A program made the translations under genes and the position numbers. Source: Nitrosopumilales archaeon (GTDB lineage: Archaea > Thermoproteota > Nitrososphaeria > Nitrososphaerales > Nitrososphaeraceae). From it: a DNA stretch of 17,985 nt. Position 1 is the stretch's first letter. Each line of letters begins with the position of its first letter. Below, one piece after another: positions 445 to 13,372 of this stretch. Location of the stretch: assembly GCA_044507735.1 (NCBI GenBank), contig JBIQJB010000035.1, forward strand, positions 1 through 17,985, read 5' to 3'. Below the pieces are notes generated by a model. The model saw only the letters and a list, made by a program, of their open reading frames with translations. It ran no database searches and was not told the origin of the DNA.

Positions 445-500
445 AAGTTAGATGGTGCGGGGGGTGGGATTTGAACCCACGAACCCCTAAGGGACGGGAT

Positions 501-520
501 AACCCATTCCTATGTGAGAT
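501..520 (-). other. tRNA intron at canonical position 37/38 (20 nt)
   Basis: ATCTCACATAGGAATGGGTT. The BHB central helix is CTTA/TGGG (two G.U pairs), with bulges AG^A and TT^A. Confidence 0.88.
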
Positions 521-534
521 CTTAAGTCCCGCGT

Positions 535-551
535 CTCCAATTTTGTAGCCT
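535..551 (-). other. Non-canonical tRNA intron in the D-arm, position ~23/24 (17 nt)
   Basis: AGGCTACAAAATTGGAG. The central helix is CCAA/TTGG with bulges AT^A and AG^A. Removal restores the D-stem GTA/TAC. Confidence 0.82.
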
Positions 552-605
552 ATTTGGCCAGGCTCTACAACCCCCGCTGACCTATGACTGCGTTAGTGCA
601 GTGTG

Positions 606-7544: not shown

Positions 7545-7553
7545 AAAAACAAA
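7545..7553 (-). terminator. Putative U-rich terminator after leuB
   Basis: TTTGTTTTT on the minus strand, starting 2 nt after the leuB stop codon. Confidence 0.45.
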
Positions 7554-7555
7554 GT

Positions 7556-8581
7556 CTAGTACAACGCTCTTGCTACGAGCTCTGTGAATTCCGTAGTTGA
7601 CAGACTGCCGCCAATATCCTTTGTCTTTTTCCCTTTTCTCAGTACATCGACGATGGCGTCCTCGATGCGCTTTCCTTCCGTTATCGCGTTCTTATCGCCG
7701 TGCTTGTCACCCAACCACTCCAACATCATCTTTGCTGACAGCATTATTGAAGATGGGTTTGCAGCATTCTTGCCTGCGATGTCAAATGCTGCACCGTGAA
7801 CGGGCTCGAAGAGTGCGAATTGTTCGCCAATGTTGGCTGCAGGCCCCATGCCAAGGCCGCCAACTACTTGAGCCGCCTCGTCTGATAGGATGTCGCCAAA
7901 GAGGTTGGTCGTGACGATAACATCGAACTCTTCGGGGTTGCGGATCAAGTTCATTGAACACGCATCCACATAGAGCTCGCTGTATTGTATCTCGGGGTAT
8001 TTCTTAGCAACATCCTTGCACGTGGCGGCAAAGAGCCCGTCTCCTTTGCGGAGCACATTTCTCTTGTGCACTGCGACCACCTTGCGCTTGTCATTGCGGA
8101 GCATCGCAGTCTTGAAAGCGTATTCCGCTATCCTGCGGCTAGCTCGTTCTGACGTCACTCTGAGAGCCACAACAGTACTTTCATCTGCGTTAAACTCCCA
8201 GCCCAAGTAAACGTCTTCTGTATTCTCTCTGACGGTAACAAGGTCAACATTATCAGATAGGCAAGGGATGTTTGGGTATGACTTGGCGGGCCGAACATTT
8301 GCGTAGAGGTCAAACATCCTCCGGAGCACGATTATGACGTCGGCGGCGCTTTCGCCTACCGGTCCCTTCAAGCATGCCTGTGACTTCTTTATCGTGTCGA
8401 CAGTCCATTCAGGCAGCGCCTTGCCGTGCTTGGCCAGTGCACCATCCCCAGCGTCCACTTCGCTTATATCAAATTTCGTAGAAGACCTGTCACTGATTGT
8501 TTCAAGGATTTTCTTTGCTGCAGAAATCTGCTCCGGACCGATCCCATCGCCCCTAATTAGGGAAATATTGTATCTTGCCAA
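7556..8581 (-). CDS. leuB: 3-isopropylmalate dehydrogenase (isocitrate/isopropylmalate dehydrogenase family)
   Basis: GDGIGPE, LYANVRP, VRENTED, NLFGDILSDEAA and FEPVHGAAFDIAGKNAANP motifs; lies directly downstream of leuA. TTG start. Confidence 0.88.
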   Translation of the reverse strand: MARYNISLIRGDGIGPEQISAAKKILETISDRSSTKFDISEVDAGDGALAKHGKALPEWTVDTIKKSQACLKGPVGESAADVIIVLRRMFDLYANVRPAKSYPNIPCLSDNVDLVTVRENTEDVYLGWEFNADESTVVALRVTSERASRRIAEYAFKTAMLRNDKRKVVAVHKRNVLRKGDGLFAATCKDVAKKYPEIQYSELYVDACSMNLIRNPEEFDVIVTTNLFGDILSDEAAQVVGGLGMGPAANIGEQFALFEPVHGAAFDIAGKNAANPSSIMLSAKMMLEWLGDKHGDKNAITEGKRIEDAIVDVLRKGKKTKDIGGSLSTTEFTELVARALY

Positions 8582-8605: not shown

Positions 8606-10126
8606 CTAGCTCTTAGAATATAGAGTCTGTCTTAGCAGCACCTTGTTTATGGCGTCCATCATTGCCTGCACGGACGCGACGACGATGTCTTCCCCAGATT
8701 TCGTCGCAGAGACGATGTTCCCGTCCTTGTCCTCCACCTTGATGGTAACGACAGCCAGAGCATCAGAGCCGCCTGCGATAGAATCGAGCATAAAGTCCCT
8801 TATCTTGATGTTGGCCATTTCGCCAGCTATTTTTTGTATCGCCTTGAGTGCTGCATCCACAGGTCCAACTCCTGTTTCAGCGGCTATGAGGTCCTTGCCG
8901 TTAGCATTGAGCCTGATGACTGCCGTGGGTATCGCGTTCATACCTGTAAAGATGTTGAAGTCATAGAGCTTGAACTTTTCCTCAAACTTGCTGTTGCCCA
9001 TTATCTCGCCGGCAATTGCTAGTAACTCCGAAGTCGTTATTGACTTGCCTTTGTCGGCGATGTTCTTTTGCTTATCTACTATCTGTCTTAGCTGCTCGTC
9101 TGTTGGTTTGATTCCAAAGTCCTCTAGCATTGCCCTTATGCCGTGAGCGCCGGCGTGCTTGCCTGCCTGAAGCCATCTTTTCCTGCCAACAAGCTCTGGC
9201 GGTATCGGCTCGTATGTAAGTGGGTTGTTGATGACTCCGTGGGTATGGATACCAGACTCGTGGCCAAATGCATTTTCTCCTATAATGGCCTTGTTCGGCT
9301 GGACAATGATTCCCATCGTGTTTGACACGAACCTCGAAGTCTCATAGATAAGCTTGGTGTTAATGTTATGCTTTTTGTTGTAGAGGATCTCTAGTGCCAT
9401 CACAAACTCTTCAAGCGACGCGTTGCCTGCCCGCTCTCCGAGCCCATTTATTGTTACATGTGCGCATGCCGCTCCAGCATTTATACCCGCGATCGCATTG
9501 GCGACGGCAAGCCCAAAGTCATTATGGCAGTGCATGCTTATCGGAAGGTGAGTCACGCTCTTGACATCCCTCACAATCTCAGCCATATATTCCGGTGTCC
9601 TGTAGCCGACTGTATCGGGTATGTCTATCCTATCGGCGCCAGCCTCTGTGACTGCCTTGAACACCTTTAGCAAAAACTGCCGGTCAGACCTCGTTGCGTC
9701 TTCAGCAGAGAACTCTACTTGCATGCCGTGCTTTTTCGCGTATTCAACTGCTCTGACTGCCCTCTCCAACACCTGCTGTGGCTCCATCTTGAGCTTGTAC
9801 TTCATGTGTATGTCTGACGTGGCGATGAATGTGTGGACATAACCCAAATCGCACTTTATCGCAGCGTCAATGTCGGTTTCGGCTGCACGTGCCAGGCCAC
9901 AGATCTCCGCCTTCAATCCCTGTTTTGCTATCGTCCTAACTGCCTGCATTTCCCCTTGTGAAACTATTGGAAAGCCGGCCTCTATAGCGTCGACTCCAAG
10001 CTCATCTAGCTTTATTGCAATTTGGACCTTTTGTTCAGGTGCAACAGTCACACCAGGTGTCTGCTCACCGTCCCGGAGAGTGGTGTCAAATATCCTCACC
10101 TTGTCGTTATTATTGCGGTTGTTCAT
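8606..10126 (-). CDS. leuA: 2-isopropylmalate synthase (LeuA/CimA family) with C-terminal regulatory domain
   Basis: IFDTTLRDGEQTPG, HTFIATSDIH, EFSAEDATR, HCHNDFGLAVAN, NGLGERAGNA, HESGIH and GVGPVDA motifs. The start overlaps the ilvH stop (TAATG). Confidence 0.9.
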   Translation of the reverse strand: MNNRNNNDKVRIFDTTLRDGEQTPGVTVAPEQKVQIAIKLDELGVDAIEAGFPIVSQGEMQAVRTIAKQGLKAEICGLARAAETDIDAAIKCDLGYVHTFIATSDIHMKYKLKMEPQQVLERAVRAVEYAKKHGMQVEFSAEDATRSDRQFLLKVFKAVTEAGADRIDIPDTVGYRTPEYMAEIVRDVKSVTHLPISMHCHNDFGLAVANAIAGINAGAACAHVTINGLGERAGNASLEEFVMALEILYNKKHNINTKLIYETSRFVSNTMGIIVQPNKAIIGENAFGHESGIHTHGVINNPLTYEPIPPELVGRKRWLQAGKHAGAHGIRAMLEDFGIKPTDEQLRQIVDKQKNIADKGKSITTSELLAIAGEIMGNSKFEEKFKLYDFNIFTGMNAIPTAVIRLNANGKDLIAAETGVGPVDAALKAIQKIAGEMANIKIRDFMLDSIAGGSDALAVVTIKVEDKDGNIVSATKSGEDIVVASVQAMMDAINKVLLRQTLYSKS

Positions 10127-10665
10127 TATGGCTCAACCCCTCTTGGAAGCGCAGATACGCCTGTCCTTGAAATCTGCGCAATACCATAATGTTCTACCAG
10201 ATTCTTAAACGCATCTATCTTGTCTGGGGTCCCGGTTATCTCTACGGTTATCGTTTCCTTGCCGATGTCAAGTATGCTGCCCCTAAAGATGGTAGCATAG
10301 TTAATTATCTCACTCCTCGTAGTAGGGTCGACAGCTTTCATCTTTATCAGCGCAAGCTCTCTGTAGACTGTCTTGCTAGTATCGAGAACCTTTACTTCTA
10401 CGACATCTATCAGCTTCCGCAACTGTTTTACCAACTGGTCAAGCGTACGCTCATCACTATTGGTTGTGATCGTCATCCTTGAAAGATCCTTCTGCTCAGT
10501 CGAACCCACAGTTATGCTTTCGATGTTGAAATTGCGAGCGCGGAAAAGGTTAGTCACCCTGAAGAGAACACCAGGTTTGTTTTCCACAAGAGCAGTCACA
10601 ATGTGCCAGGACCCTTTTGGATTATCAGTATTTGTTGATGTTGCTGTAGCGGTACTACTCACCAA
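10126..10665 (-). CDS. ilvH: Acetolactate synthase small (regulatory, ACT-domain) subunit
   Basis: LVENKPGVLFRVTNLFRARNFNIESITVG, QLRKLIDV, RELALIK and RTG motifs; lies downstream of ilvB. Confidence 0.95.
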   Translation of the reverse strand: MVSSTATATSTNTDNPKGSWHIVTALVENKPGVLFRVTNLFRARNFNIESITVGSTEQKDLSRMTITTNSDERTLDQLVKQLRKLIDVVEVKVLDTSKTVYRELALIKMKAVDPTTRSEIINYATIFRGSILDIGKETITVEITGTPDKIDAFKNLVEHYGIAQISRTGVSALPRGVEP

Positions 10666-10670
10666 ATCAA

Positions 10671-12359
10671 TTACGCTCCTGTTATCATATCCTTGAGGCC
10701 GCTACCGGGGGCTACGAATGGATATACGTCTTCGTCAGGATCTATAGGGATATCTATCACGGTGGCGACGTCACTCTTTATCGCCGTCTTGATCGCCTTT
10801 TCGAGCTCCTGCATCGATCCCACCCTTATGCCCTGCGCGCCATACGCTTCTGCAATCTTGACATAGTCAGGACAGTTGTGTTGGTGTACTCCGCTATAGC
10901 GCCTGTTGTAGAATGTGCGCTGCCATTGCGCCACCATGCCAAGCATGTAGTTGTTCATAAGAAATACAATAACAGGCAACTTTTCAAGCACGGACACTGC
11001 AAGAGAGTTCTCGGTCATGTTGAACGAGCCGTCGCCGGCAATGTCCACAACCGGTACATCCGGAGCAGCAGCCTTTGCTCCTATCGACGCAGGGAAGCCA
11101 AAGCCCATCGTGCCAAGCCCTGTCGAACTAAAGAAGGTGCCTGGCGAAATTACGTCAAAGTGAAGCGAGGCCCACATCTGGCATTGACCTACTTCTGTGG
11201 TCACAATACCTTTTGCAGGCAACAATTCACGCAACTTTTTCAGCGACTTCTTGGCCGTGATCTCTCTTGGATAGTCCTTGAGAGTCTCAGAGTAATACTG
11301 TATTAGCTCCCTCCTGCGCTTGAGCCAAGGGTTGTCCGGCGACCTCTTGGCTATTTTCTTTGAGAGCATCTTGACGAGCGTGCGGAGCGATGACTTGACG
11401 TCGCCTACAAGAGCCACATCCACGGATTTGTTCTTCCCGATTTCGGCAGGGTCGATATCCATGTGGATTATGCTCATGCCCTTGCCAAATTCATCGAATC
11501 GTCCTACAGACCTGTCGGAGAACCTTGCGCCGACCGCCACAATGCAGTCTGCCTCAACAATTATCTTGTTGGCCTCCGCATGTCCATGCATGCCTATCGG
11601 GCCCATTGCAAGTGGATGATTCTCCGGGAATGCACCCTTGCCCTTGAAAGTAGTAACCACAGGTATCATAAGCAGCTCGGCCAACGCCTGAAGTTCCGAG
11701 AATGCGCCAGAGAGAATCACACCTCCGCCAGCCATTATTATCGGCCTCTCGGCCTTTACAAGAATTTCAACAGCCTTGCTCATCTCGCGAAGGTCGGCAT
11801 CTACAACAGGGTTGTATCCTCGCACCTTGATGAGGTCGGGGAACTTCATGTCTGCGGTGGCCTGTTGCACGTCCTTCGGAATGTCTACCAGCACAGGCCC
11901 GGGTCTCCCGCTCTCAGCTATGTAGAATGCTTTCTTGACCATCTCGGGGATCTCATTTGCCATTCTTGGTTGGAATGCATATTTTGTGCACGGATTGGCA
12001 ACTCCGATGATATCTGTCTCTTGGAATGCATCTTTCCCTATCATGTTGAGCGGCACTTGGCCAGTAACGGCCACAATCGGTGACGAGTCTGCATATGCGG
12101 TAGCGATGCCTGTAATCAGATTAGTTGCTCCGGGGCCCGAGGTCGCAAAACAAACGCCGGCCCTTCTCTTTATCCTTGCATACCCGTCAGCCATGTGGGC
12201 TGCAGATTGCTCATGTCTGACAAGCACGTGTCTCAAGTTTGCATCTACAAGAGCATCATATATCGGAAGATTCGCTCCTCCAGGAAGTCCAAAGACTACA
12301 TCTGTCCCTTCCTTCTCGAGGGCCTGTATCAAGGCCTTTGCGCCAGTCATTTCAACCAA
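10671..12359 (-). CDS. ilvB: Acetolactate synthase large subunit, biosynthetic type
   Basis: VFGLPGGA, RHEQSAAHMADGYAR, TSGPGATN, GRPGPVLVDIPKD, GLGTMGFG and the TPP motif GDGSFNM...NN. The start is TTG 12359 (GGTGA SD at 12373-12369) or ATG 12350. Confidence 0.97.
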   Translation of the reverse strand: MVEMTGAKALIQALEKEGTDVVFGLPGGANLPIYDALVDANLRHVLVRHEQSAAHMADGYARIKRRAGVCFATSGPGATNLITGIATAYADSSPIVAVTGQVPLNMIGKDAFQETDIIGVANPCTKYAFQPRMANEIPEMVKKAFYIAESGRPGPVLVDIPKDVQQATADMKFPDLIKVRGYNPVVDADLREMSKAVEILVKAERPIIMAGGGVILSGAFSELQALAELLMIPVVTTFKGKGAFPENHPLAMGPIGMHGHAEANKIIVEADCIVAVGARFSDRSVGRFDEFGKGMSIIHMDIDPAEIGKNKSVDVALVGDVKSSLRTLVKMLSKKIAKRSPDNPWLKRRRELIQYYSETLKDYPREITAKKSLKKLRELLPAKGIVTTEVGQCQMWASLHFDVISPGTFFSSTGLGTMGFGFPASIGAKAAAPDVPVVDIAGDGSFNMTENSLAVSVLEKLPVIVFLMNNYMLGMVAQWQRTFYNRRYSGVHQHNCPDYVKIAEAYGAQGIRVGSMQELEKAIKTAIKSDVATVIDIPIDPDEDVYPFVAPGSGLKDMITGA

Positions 12360-12420
12360 TTTTATTTTTCACCAAATTTCTCTCTGCAAACGCCTGCTCG
12401 CCTGCTAGACAGGGTTTGCT

Positions 12421-12480
12421 CTAGGCAAGTCTCAGTAGAACCAGAACATGAACCTTGTGTTCCCTGTCAGCCCTAGGCAT
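12421..12480 (-). CDS. Putative leader peptide of the ilv-leu operon, MPRADREHKVHVLVLLRLA (19 aa)
   Basis: ATG CCT AGG GCT GAC AGG GAA CAC AAG GTT CAT GTT CTG GTT CTA CTG AGA CTT GCC TAG. The ATG is 24 nt after the TATA box, at the predicted transcription start. Seven of codons 10-18 are Val or Leu. The ORF ends 61 nt before ilvB. Confidence 0.72.
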   Translation of the reverse strand: MPRADREHKVHVLVLLRLA

Positions 12481-12504
12481 TTTTGATGAATTGCACTAAT
12501 ATAA

Positions 12505-12512
12505 TTTATAAA
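12505..12512 (-). promoter_or_regulatory. TATA box of the leader-ilvB-ilvH-leuA-leuB operon
   Basis: Consensus TTTATAAA; predicts a transcription start near 12480-12482. Confidence 0.7.
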
Positions 12513-12580
12513 GTTAACGTCCATTAAGGCAGATAATCCGGTATCTCTGAAGGTCACAAACGCCGAAAGCCGCACCATTT

Positions 12581-12595
12581 ATGCAATAATTGCAA
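12581..12595. promoter_or_regulatory. Palindromic operator-like site (Lrp/AsnC-like)
   Basis: ATGCAATAATTGCAA with a perfect TGCAAT-A-ATTGCA dyad, about 70 nt upstream of the ilv TATA box. Confidence 0.4.
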
Positions 12596-12934
12596 TGCAT
12601 TTCCAACTTTCGTTGACCAGCTAGCTTGGCATTCGTATGGATGATTATCTGTTTGTTGATAATAACTGGTTTTTAGTCACAAATCGAGATTGCGAAAAAT
12701 GAGGAAAAACTCGTGCAAGCGATACCATCCTTAGAATTGTGCGCCACTGCTCACGCAAACTCCAGCAGTGGTGAGAAACAGAACGCCTGCCCAAAAGCCG
12801 GTCACCCAACCGGGGCTGGCCACTAGGGCTTGTTATCCTATACAACATCAGCGGGTGACTTTACTGCACTGGGCCGAAAGCAGCACACATACTATCCATA
12901 ACCTGAGAAGGTTAAAGTCAGTTTATTAGACTGT

Positions 12935-13372
12935 GTGCTCAGACAGAACATCAGATTGGTTGCTTCAACTACTGATTCTGCTAAGGTACGTGACCTGATT
13001 TACGACTATTTTCAACTCGCTAAGACTAAAGAGATTGAAAAGATAGAAGAGTTTCTGGATCCAGGTTTTACCAAGTTCGGCGATTCGCCCCCGTACGACC
13101 GGCGGGACTTTGAGCGCGCCCTAATGCTTGAGCAGCTTCAGTTTGCGAGCTTGTCCGACTACGACTTCAAGATCGAAGACATGAAGACAGAGATAATGGG
13201 AGACGCTGCGATTGCGACATTTGTTTTGCAGATAACGGGCATGATTGTAGACGACTATAGCTTTCGCGGAACAGCAATCAACAACAGATCAAGGGCGACT
13301 GTCGTCCTGAAAAAGGACAAAAACGGTCGGTGGAAAATAATCCACCAACACCTGTCAAAACTTGTGGTCTAG
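12935..13372 (+). CDS. SnoaL-like / nuclear transport factor 2 (NTF2) family protein
   Basis: An N-terminal helix followed by beta strands with the typical pattern GDAAIAT...SRATVVLKKDKNGRWKIIHQHLS. The start is GTG 12935 or a slightly downstream TTG. The stop overlaps the convergent aldolase stop (CTAG). Confidence 0.88.
   Translation: MLRQNIRLVASTTDSAKVRDLIYDYFQLAKTKEIEKIEEFLDPGFTKFGDSPPYDRRDFERALMLEQLQFASLSDYDFKIEDMKTEIMGDAAIATFVLQITGMIVDDYSFRGTAINNRSRATVVLKKDKNGRWKIIHQHLSKLVV

Follow-up and report, generated by a model that had tools for sequence, protein, structure and literature searches.

A predicted leaderless leader peptide rich in valine, leucine and isoleucine codons precedes ilvB in an archaeal class

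We analyzed a 17,985-nt contig of a Nitrosopumilales archaeon of the family Nitrososphaeraceae (assembly GCA_044507735.1, contig JBIQJB010000035.1); this whole stretch, at its full length, is referred to as the window. Its minus strand carries a four-gene operon for branched-chain amino acid synthesis. Pfam searches identified ilvB, the acetolactate synthase large subunit (10671–12359, minus strand; three TPP-enzyme domains); ilvH/ilvN, the small subunit (10126–10665, minus strand; ACT and ALS_ss_C); leuA, 2-isopropylmalate synthase (8606–10126, minus strand; HMGL-like and LeuA_dimer); and, as the last gene, leuB, 3-isopropylmalate dehydrogenase (7556–8581, minus strand; Iso_dh). The first of these genes encodes the first common enzyme of the branched-chain pathway. 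A run of five T residues (7545–7549, minus strand), which starts 7 nt after the leuB stop codon with 6 nt between, is likely the operon terminator. The ilvB start is most likely the TTG at 12359 (MVEM...) and not the ATG at 12350, because relatives have ATG-GTx-GAA where the window has TTG-GTT-GAA. A Shine-Dalgarno (SD) sequence, GGTGA (12369–12373, minus strand), conserved in the genus alignment, lies 9 nt before this TTG, and SD-like motifs peaked genome-wide at −20 to −11 before crude gene starts; judged by these positions, the geometry of ilvB is that of an SD-led gene. On the far side of the operon promoter, about 420 nt (12513–12934) contain no convincing gene and no Rfam match, and are followed by a divergent DUF4440/SnoaL-like gene (12935–13372, plus strand).

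The operon is preceded by a short upstream open reading frame (uORF) that we regard as an unannotated small gene overlooked by automatic annotation. On the minus strand, the frame runs from the ATG at 12480–12478 to the TAG at 12423–12421 and translates, within 12418–12480 of the window, as MPRADREHKVHVLVLLRLA*. The leader uORF (12421–12480, minus strand) comprises 19 codons plus TAG: ATG CCT AGG GCT GAC AGG GAA CAC AAG GTT CAT GTT CTG GTT CTA CTG AGA CTT GCC TAG. Translation and comparison of the tracts within the genus delimited a control tract at codons 10–18 (12427–12453, minus strand; V H V L V L L R L), encoded by GTT CAT GTT CTG GTT CTA CTG AGA CTT. Valine is encoded three times by GTT (codons 10, 12 and 14) and leucine by CTG, CTA, CTG and CTT (codons 13, 15, 16 and 18), so that seven of the last ten uORF codons belong to the V/L/I class, all of them Val or Leu. 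The tract ends 6 nt from the stop codon, and a spacer of 61 nt separates this stop from the ilvB start. A preliminary description, made from the letters of the window and their translated frames, had reported a Val/Leu-rich frame of 19 codons at this place, with all its Val and Leu codons in codons 10–18, upstream of ilvB-ilvH-leuA-leuB; frame and gene identities were confirmed by translation and by Pfam, respectively, and its codon list proved exact.

A cmscan search of the whole window against Rfam at E values up to 1 gave no match in the leader (12348–12512), a tRNA scan of the window found none, and a scan for bacterial promoters and terminators returned 0 sites. Elsewhere in the window, Rfam reported a sub-threshold tmRNA match at 453–577 (minus strand; E = 0.00067; 18.3 bits, with the gathering score at 47), which is probably spurious; ARAGORN found neither a tmRNA nor a tRNA in the window.

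We then considered how the uORF would be transcribed. A TATA box, TTTATAAA (12505–12512, minus strand), forms the putative operon promoter; from its first base to the A of the uORF ATG the distance is 32 nt. TATA-like motifs peaked genome-wide at −39 to −27 before crude start codons, and the uORF matches this peak, which supports a geometry like that of a leaderless gene. The position of the box predicts a transcript 5′ end at the ATG or within a few nucleotides (about 2) of it, that is, a uORF without a leader of its own. Every one of the 21 genus loci whose upstream region is complete carried the box. More broadly, 44 of the 49 loci that reached the score defined below had a TATA-like box with its first base 26–42 nt upstream of the uORF start; the distance was 31–36 nt in 34 of these 44 and most often 32 nt (19 loci). 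The earlier prediction of +1 at the uORF ATG agrees with the genome-wide peak and with the recurrence of this distance in scoring loci. The spacer between the uORF and ilvB contained neither a promoter-like box at a workable distance nor a run of four or more T, and on these grounds transcription of ilvB is taken to pass through the uORF. Immediately upstream of the TATA box, the sequence was not conserved between the window and other members of the genus.

To judge the V/L/I-rich end of the frame against chance, we considered, at every locus, each stop codon located 20–150 nt upstream of ilvB, counted V/L/I among the 10 codons preceding it and took the largest count as the score. The frequency of V, L and I together in the genome is 0.231. 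The window's score of 7 was reached by none of 100 dinucleotide shuffles of its own upstream region and by 24 of 1934 crude upstream regions in this genome, many of which were ends of upstream genes. The score alone is therefore rare but not unique within the genome, and it is conservation that sets the window's uORF apart. Other branched-chain genes are scattered over the genome: ilvC, ilvD, leuC-like genes of the aconitase family and two ilvE-like genes lie on contigs C17, C24, C2, C33 and C49 of the assembly (G000). Upstream of ilvC, ilvD, three aconitase-family (leuC-like) genes and the two ilvE-like genes, a comparable uORF was absent, and among the branched-chain genes examined in this genome the element sits at the ilvB operon only. 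Two wider searches of the genome agreed with this picture: a TATA-anchored scan of 86 short frames revealed no other convincing product-matched leaderless leader peptide, and a scan of the 1934 upstream regions for V/L/I tracts revealed no second convincing leader peptide.

The uORF, its V/L/I-rich end and the promoter geometry recurred in the 21 loci of the genus that retain a full upstream region. In a 22nd genus locus (L018), which is cut by a contig end, the tract, the hairpin described below and the SD sequence were present, and the start codon and promoter would lie beyond the contig end. These counts include two loci from unpublished genomes (G009 and G022), on which none of our claims rests. 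Without them, the uORF and promoter occurred in 19 of the 19 genus loci whose upstream region is complete, and the V/L/I-rich end in 20 of 20.

At the level of the class, we found ilvB in 38 of the 41 relatives and in 106 of the 121 class genomes. From these we assembled 69 upstream regions, 29 from the set of relatives and 40 from the class set (mostly one per genus), leaving out a paralogue (L002) and a contig-end fragment (L026). A score of at least 7 was reached by 49 of the 69 loci, compared with 155 of 6900 dinucleotide shuffles and 7 of 69 antisense strands. Scoring loci occurred in 16 of the 21 families sampled in the class, including 13 of 18 loci of a large marine family, and two further families of the order scored 5 and 6. 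Of the 69 loci, 20 stayed below 7. Three genera of the window's family, other than its own genus, belong here with a score of 4 each, as do the three f9 loci, some lineages of high GC or AT content and a locus containing Ns. Because related genomes are not independent, there are fewer independent observations than these counts suggest, and the spread over 16 families with unrelated N-terminal sequences appears to us the stronger argument. The comparison with relatives, to which the preliminary description had looked for a verdict on its leader peptide, thus came out in favor of the frame and its Val/Leu bias.

Downstream of the uORF, folding revealed a hairpin (hairpin 2; leader nt 62–95; 12386–12419, minus strand) that starts 2 nt beyond the stop codon. 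Its stems in the centroid structure, GCAAAC/GTTTGC and CCTG/CAGG, form 10 pairs, to which the minimum free energy structure adds two (12). In the window, the hairpin has a predicted energy of −14.7 kcal/mol (z = −2.1), and 9 of 200 shuffles reached this stability; the leader as a whole was no more stable than its shuffles (z = 0.0). The ilvB SD sequence lies 12 nt outside the hairpin. We next folded the 45 nt that begin at the uORF stop in each of the 49 scoring loci and compared them with shuffles. The median z was −2.0, with 26 of the 49 loci below −2 and 42 below −1, and in 38 of the 49 the hairpin started between −2 and +3 nt of the end of the stop codon. Its place was constant in three sub-groups of the genus and in other families, while sequence and register differed: one sub-group has the outer stem GCAAAC/GTTTGC, another the outer stem GACAAA/TTTGTC, and the third an inner stem GTGCTT/AAGCAC. 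Because the registers of the sub-groups differ, which precludes a covariation count on a single alignment, the hairpin was assessed by its stability in each sequence.

Folding and genus alignment pairing also pointed to a further pairing segment within the uORF, segment 1 (leader nt 10–22, codons 4–8; 12459–12471, minus strand), which can pair either with the Leu/Val codons 14–16 or with the 5′ arm of hairpin 2, so that the possible pairings are 1:2, 1:3 and 3:4. Pairing of segment 1 with the tract was kept in 84% of genus cells, as against 24–55% for slid controls. This helix displayed almost no covariation and did not exceed column shuffles, and its stability did not exceed that obtained with a shuffled N-terminal half (window z = +0.42). 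The only double change in this helix occurs in one genus locus (L023), where a tract codon goes from CTG to CCG (Leu to Pro) and its partner in segment 1 from A to G. Pairing of segment 1 with the hairpin arm was kept in 67% of genus cells and included one clean covarying pair (A-U in 12 loci, G-C in 8, none unpaired), with compensated changes in L003, L005, L007 and L017; the covariation of this helix was 0.162 versus 0.145 for column shuffles, and 93 of 500 shuffles reached 0.162. We consider the covariation of the alternative pairings modest. A general "hairpin 1", in which the N-terminal half pairs with the tract, was striking in single folds but was rejected, as in the genus it was no better than with shuffled N-terminal halves; outside the genus it was only mildly better (median z = −1.1, with 6 of 24 below −2).

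To examine how a ribosome on the uORF would affect hairpin 2, we modeled the predicted hairpin probability (P) as a function of the position of the ribosomal A site in 21 genus leaders. With the A site on the stop codon or the last three codons, P was predicted to fall to 0.14 or less in 12 of the 21 leaders, comprising 8 of the 12 outside sub-group B and 4 of the 9 within it; in the nine leaders of sub-group B, P was mostly 0.2–0.65 even with the A site on the stop codon. With the A site at −4 to −7, and outside sub-group B, 10 of the 12 leaders had at least one position at which the predicted P was 0.34 or less. In the model, this loss of the hairpin comes about through pairing of segment 1 with the hairpin arm, and it was hardly seen in the nine sub-group B leaders. 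Equilibrium folding of the free leader RNA of the window already disfavored the hairpin (P = 0.01), and the corresponding values in the genus ranged from 0.00 to 0.94; because of these low and scattered values, the thermodynamic model is inconsistent.

We also looked for the step on which the hairpin would act. Runs of five or more T occurred within 100 nt after 22.3% of 1961 crude genes, compared with 6.7% in coding sequence, and the genome-wide enrichment fell in the first 30 nt after stop codons, suggesting that the organism uses plain oligo-T terminators. The longest T run between the uORF stop and ilvB in the window is a TTT inside the 3′ arm of the hairpin; because an oligo-T tract is absent, though gene ends carry T5, a classical intrinsic terminator is not evident in this leader. 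Only about half of the other families have runs of T4–T6 after the hairpin; L028, L051, L053, L056, L063 and L067 are examples. Sequestration of the SD sequence, as in the mycobacterial type discussed below, was rejected for the genus, because the predicted accessibility of the region from the ilvB SD to the start codon stayed constant across ribosome positions: its mean unpaired probability in 21 genus leaders was 0.58 in the free RNA and 0.56–0.59 with the ribosome at four positions. Our guess, a weak preference, is that the output is hairpin-dependent premature transcription termination, perhaps aided by a factor, or RNA processing, and not masking of the ribosome-binding site. The ribosome-mediated attenuation first proposed for this operon is thus supported in its sensor by the conserved V/L/I frame; an intrinsic terminator with oligo-T does not accompany it, and premature termination, attenuation in the strict sense, is what we infer.

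The reading we prefer, and hold to be probably correct, is that the uORF serves as a leaderless leader peptide that senses branched-chain amino acids and on which a stalled ribosome prevents formation of the hairpin. The comparison across loci supports the sensor itself well, and we rate it as likely. Translation of the uORF, stalling and the role of the hairpin enter the model as inferred steps. The messenger of ilvB-ilvH-leuA-leuB would start at the uORF ATG or within a few nucleotides of it, and ribosomes would read the uORF in leaderless fashion. Under a shortage of charged Val-, Leu- or Ile-tRNA, the first ribosome would linger on codons 10–18. Held on the last codons, it would cover the 5′ arm of the hairpin; held slightly further upstream, it would leave segment 1 free to pair with that arm. 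By either route the hairpin would be blocked and the operon expressed. When the amino acids are plentiful, the ribosome would finish and leave, the hairpin would form and expression would be lowered. More tentatively, we suggest as a possibility, on balance a doubtful one, that ammonia-oxidizing and related archaea of this class directly gauge the charging of Val-, Leu- and Ile-tRNA through a leaderless leader peptide and that the hairpin governs an archaea-specific step, for example factor-dependent termination of the aCPSF1/FttA type or cleavage of the nascent leader, in place of a hairpin-plus-U terminator.

Whether the tract is maintained for its codons or for its nucleotides bears directly on this reading. 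Among the 22 genus loci, which carry 19 distinct tracts, seven positions remained V, I or L, and the changes at these positions were either synonymous (CTG/CTA, GTT/GTC) or conservative (GTT/ATT). Positions −3 and −9 of the tract were free, with 8 and 3 different amino acids, respectively, in the genus. Beyond the genus, what is kept between families is the amino-acid class of the tract and not its nucleotide sequence. These patterns weigh on an alternative that we consider improbable, namely that the uORF is translated and acts in cis without gauging amino acids, by loading ribosomes, opening the hairpin or protecting the 5′ end, with the V/L/I run arising as a by-product of nucleotide constraints such as tract pairing. 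The 84% retention of pairing between the tract and the upstream part of the uORF, the L023 change matched on the other strand of the helix and the folding and T-run analyses, which identified no output step for sensing, speak for such an element. Against it, the tract nucleotides and their partners differ across families while the amino-acid class is kept, the pairing between tract and N-terminal half in the genus is no stronger than with shuffled halves, and the element precedes ilvB, whose pathway makes precisely these three amino acids, and not the other genes examined in the genome.

An amino-acid-sensing tract also accounts better for the composition of the uORFs than a small hydrophobic peptide with a function of its own, for example a membrane micro-protein merely co-transcribed with ilvB, which we regard as very unlikely. 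Small hydrophobic proteins are common in prokaryotes, and the C-terminal half of the uORF is indeed hydrophobic. The hydrophobic run, however, spans at most about 10 residues, too short for a membrane span of about 18 or more, and is broken by D, E, Q, R, H, S and P while being almost devoid of F, M, W and A. In the last ten codons of 32 loci (the window and the non-genus scorers), we counted 241 V/L/I residues, 63 polar, charged or Pro residues and 16 other hydrophobic or small residues (F/M/A/W/C/G), a distribution that favors a run of branched-chain codons over a membrane helix. Across families the uORFs range from 14 to 37 codons and have dissimilar N-terminal halves, with no conservation of these halves between families, and all end in a V/L/I run, as exemplified by MNEHGNTTSLVELLLLVVLLD, MTYILTQPFLVLVELVL, MNKTTDKTALFLLVVLL and MRSTMSERVSASSSSVALIVLLIVV from loci of the class. 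The position of the uORF relative to ilvB and the hairpin is likewise fixed, which also counts against this reading.

A non-coding structured 5′ untranslated region bound by a protein or ligand, in which the open frame is incidental, would suit the conserved hairpin and an AT-rich palindrome between uORF and ilvB in the marine family, a possible protein site, but is very unlikely given that the frame is open with its start codon at the predicted +1 in 21 of 21 full genus loci and in most families, that indels come in multiples of three, that substitutions follow codon logic and that the leader has no Rfam match at E values up to 1. Within the genus, the 21 full uORFs range from 19 to 24 codons, one of them starting with GTG, and it is between the genus sub-groups that the indels were multiples of three. 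The palindrome, AAAATTTTAACAC(A)TTAAAATT, followed by ATGGAG, is strongly conserved in many genera of the large marine family (f13; L037–L053); it may form a second RNA hairpin, serve as a protein site or belong to the ribosome-binding region.

In bacteria, attenuation by leader peptides is textbook knowledge and relies on transcription being coupled to translation; the enterobacterial ilvBN (ivbL), ilvGMEDA (ilvL) and leu (leuL) operons carry leader-peptide transcription attenuators. The archaeal element resembles ivbL, ilvL and leuL in its layout, with a short frame rich in end-product codons before the first biosynthetic gene, then a hairpin and then an SD-led gene, and in the logic proposed here, by which a hungry ribosome would turn the operon on. 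It differs from them in being archaeal and in having a frame that is predicted to be leaderless and lacks an SD sequence. The control codons lie at the very end of the frame beside a single hairpin, and not in segment 1 of a 1:2/2:3/3:4 arrangement, so that the pairings are 1:2, 1:3 and 3:4 in place of the classical set. In this genus, moreover, no U-run follows the hairpin, and no Rfam leader family matched. A second comparison is offered by translation attenuation of cat and erm resistance genes, in which a drug-stalled ribosome in a short leader frame melts an adjacent hairpin holding the SD sequence. A stalled ribosome that melts the adjoining hairpin from within a short leader frame is also what we propose; here, in contrast, the suggested cause of stalling is amino-acid supply, and the SD sequence lies outside the hairpin, at a distance of 12 nt.

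Two further bacterial systems come closer in individual features. Excerpts of a study of the Corynebacterium glutamicum ilvBNC leader (PMC11857589) describe a three-hairpin model with an intrinsic terminator and a leader peptide without a ribosome-binding site. To the extent of these excerpts, both systems control ilvB through a leader peptide lacking a ribosome-binding site, with a hairpin between leader and ilvB; unlike the bacterial system with its three hairpins and intrinsic terminator, the hairpin described here has no U-run and would be met by archaeal transcription machinery. In the mycobacterial polycysteine leaderless short ORFs (Ms5788A), as presented in parts of a preprint (bioRxiv 10.1101/834739), control is translational and works through pairing of the tract with the SD region of the following gene. 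Measured against those parts, the uORF is similar in being a (predicted) leaderless short ORF that forms the first frame of an operon messenger, with cognate codons at its 3′ end, and in that the leader folds according to whether a ribosome occupies the tract, as our model proposes here; it is dissimilar in that SD accessibility was unchanged by ribosome position in our folding. We class the element as a variant and not as a member of these systems, because the U-run terminator and Rfam match of the classical type and the tract:SD pairing of the mycobacterial type were all absent.

Searches of open-licence full text in PubMed Central and bioRxiv, which may miss subscription papers, returned no description of leader-peptide attenuation in archaea, and none appeared in the accessible portions of a review of coupling or of ribosome-profiling papers on Haloferax and Methanosarcina. 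Coupling of transcription and translation is itself known in archaea (French et al. 2007, as cited in the review of coupling). A conserved, product-matched leader peptide, predicted to be leaderless and recurring across a class that includes globally important ammonia oxidizers, provides a concrete and easily mutated test object. With it one can ask whether ribosomes in archaea act in cis to regulate transcription or the fate of the RNA, and which machinery for termination or processing they would use.

Finally, we extended the scoring beyond the class using a sample of the phylum. One of the 37 scored ilvB upstream regions reached 7 (L077), and one more region was too short to score. Two families in this sample displayed other features at the same place. 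In f42 (L094–L096), the V/L/I frame was absent and the loci shared a common ...CCCTCCAA... motif just before a stop codon; in f31 (L084, L086 and L087), the frame was likewise absent and the upstream regions carried long-range inverted repeats. The f42 motif and the f31 repeats may represent different leader elements.
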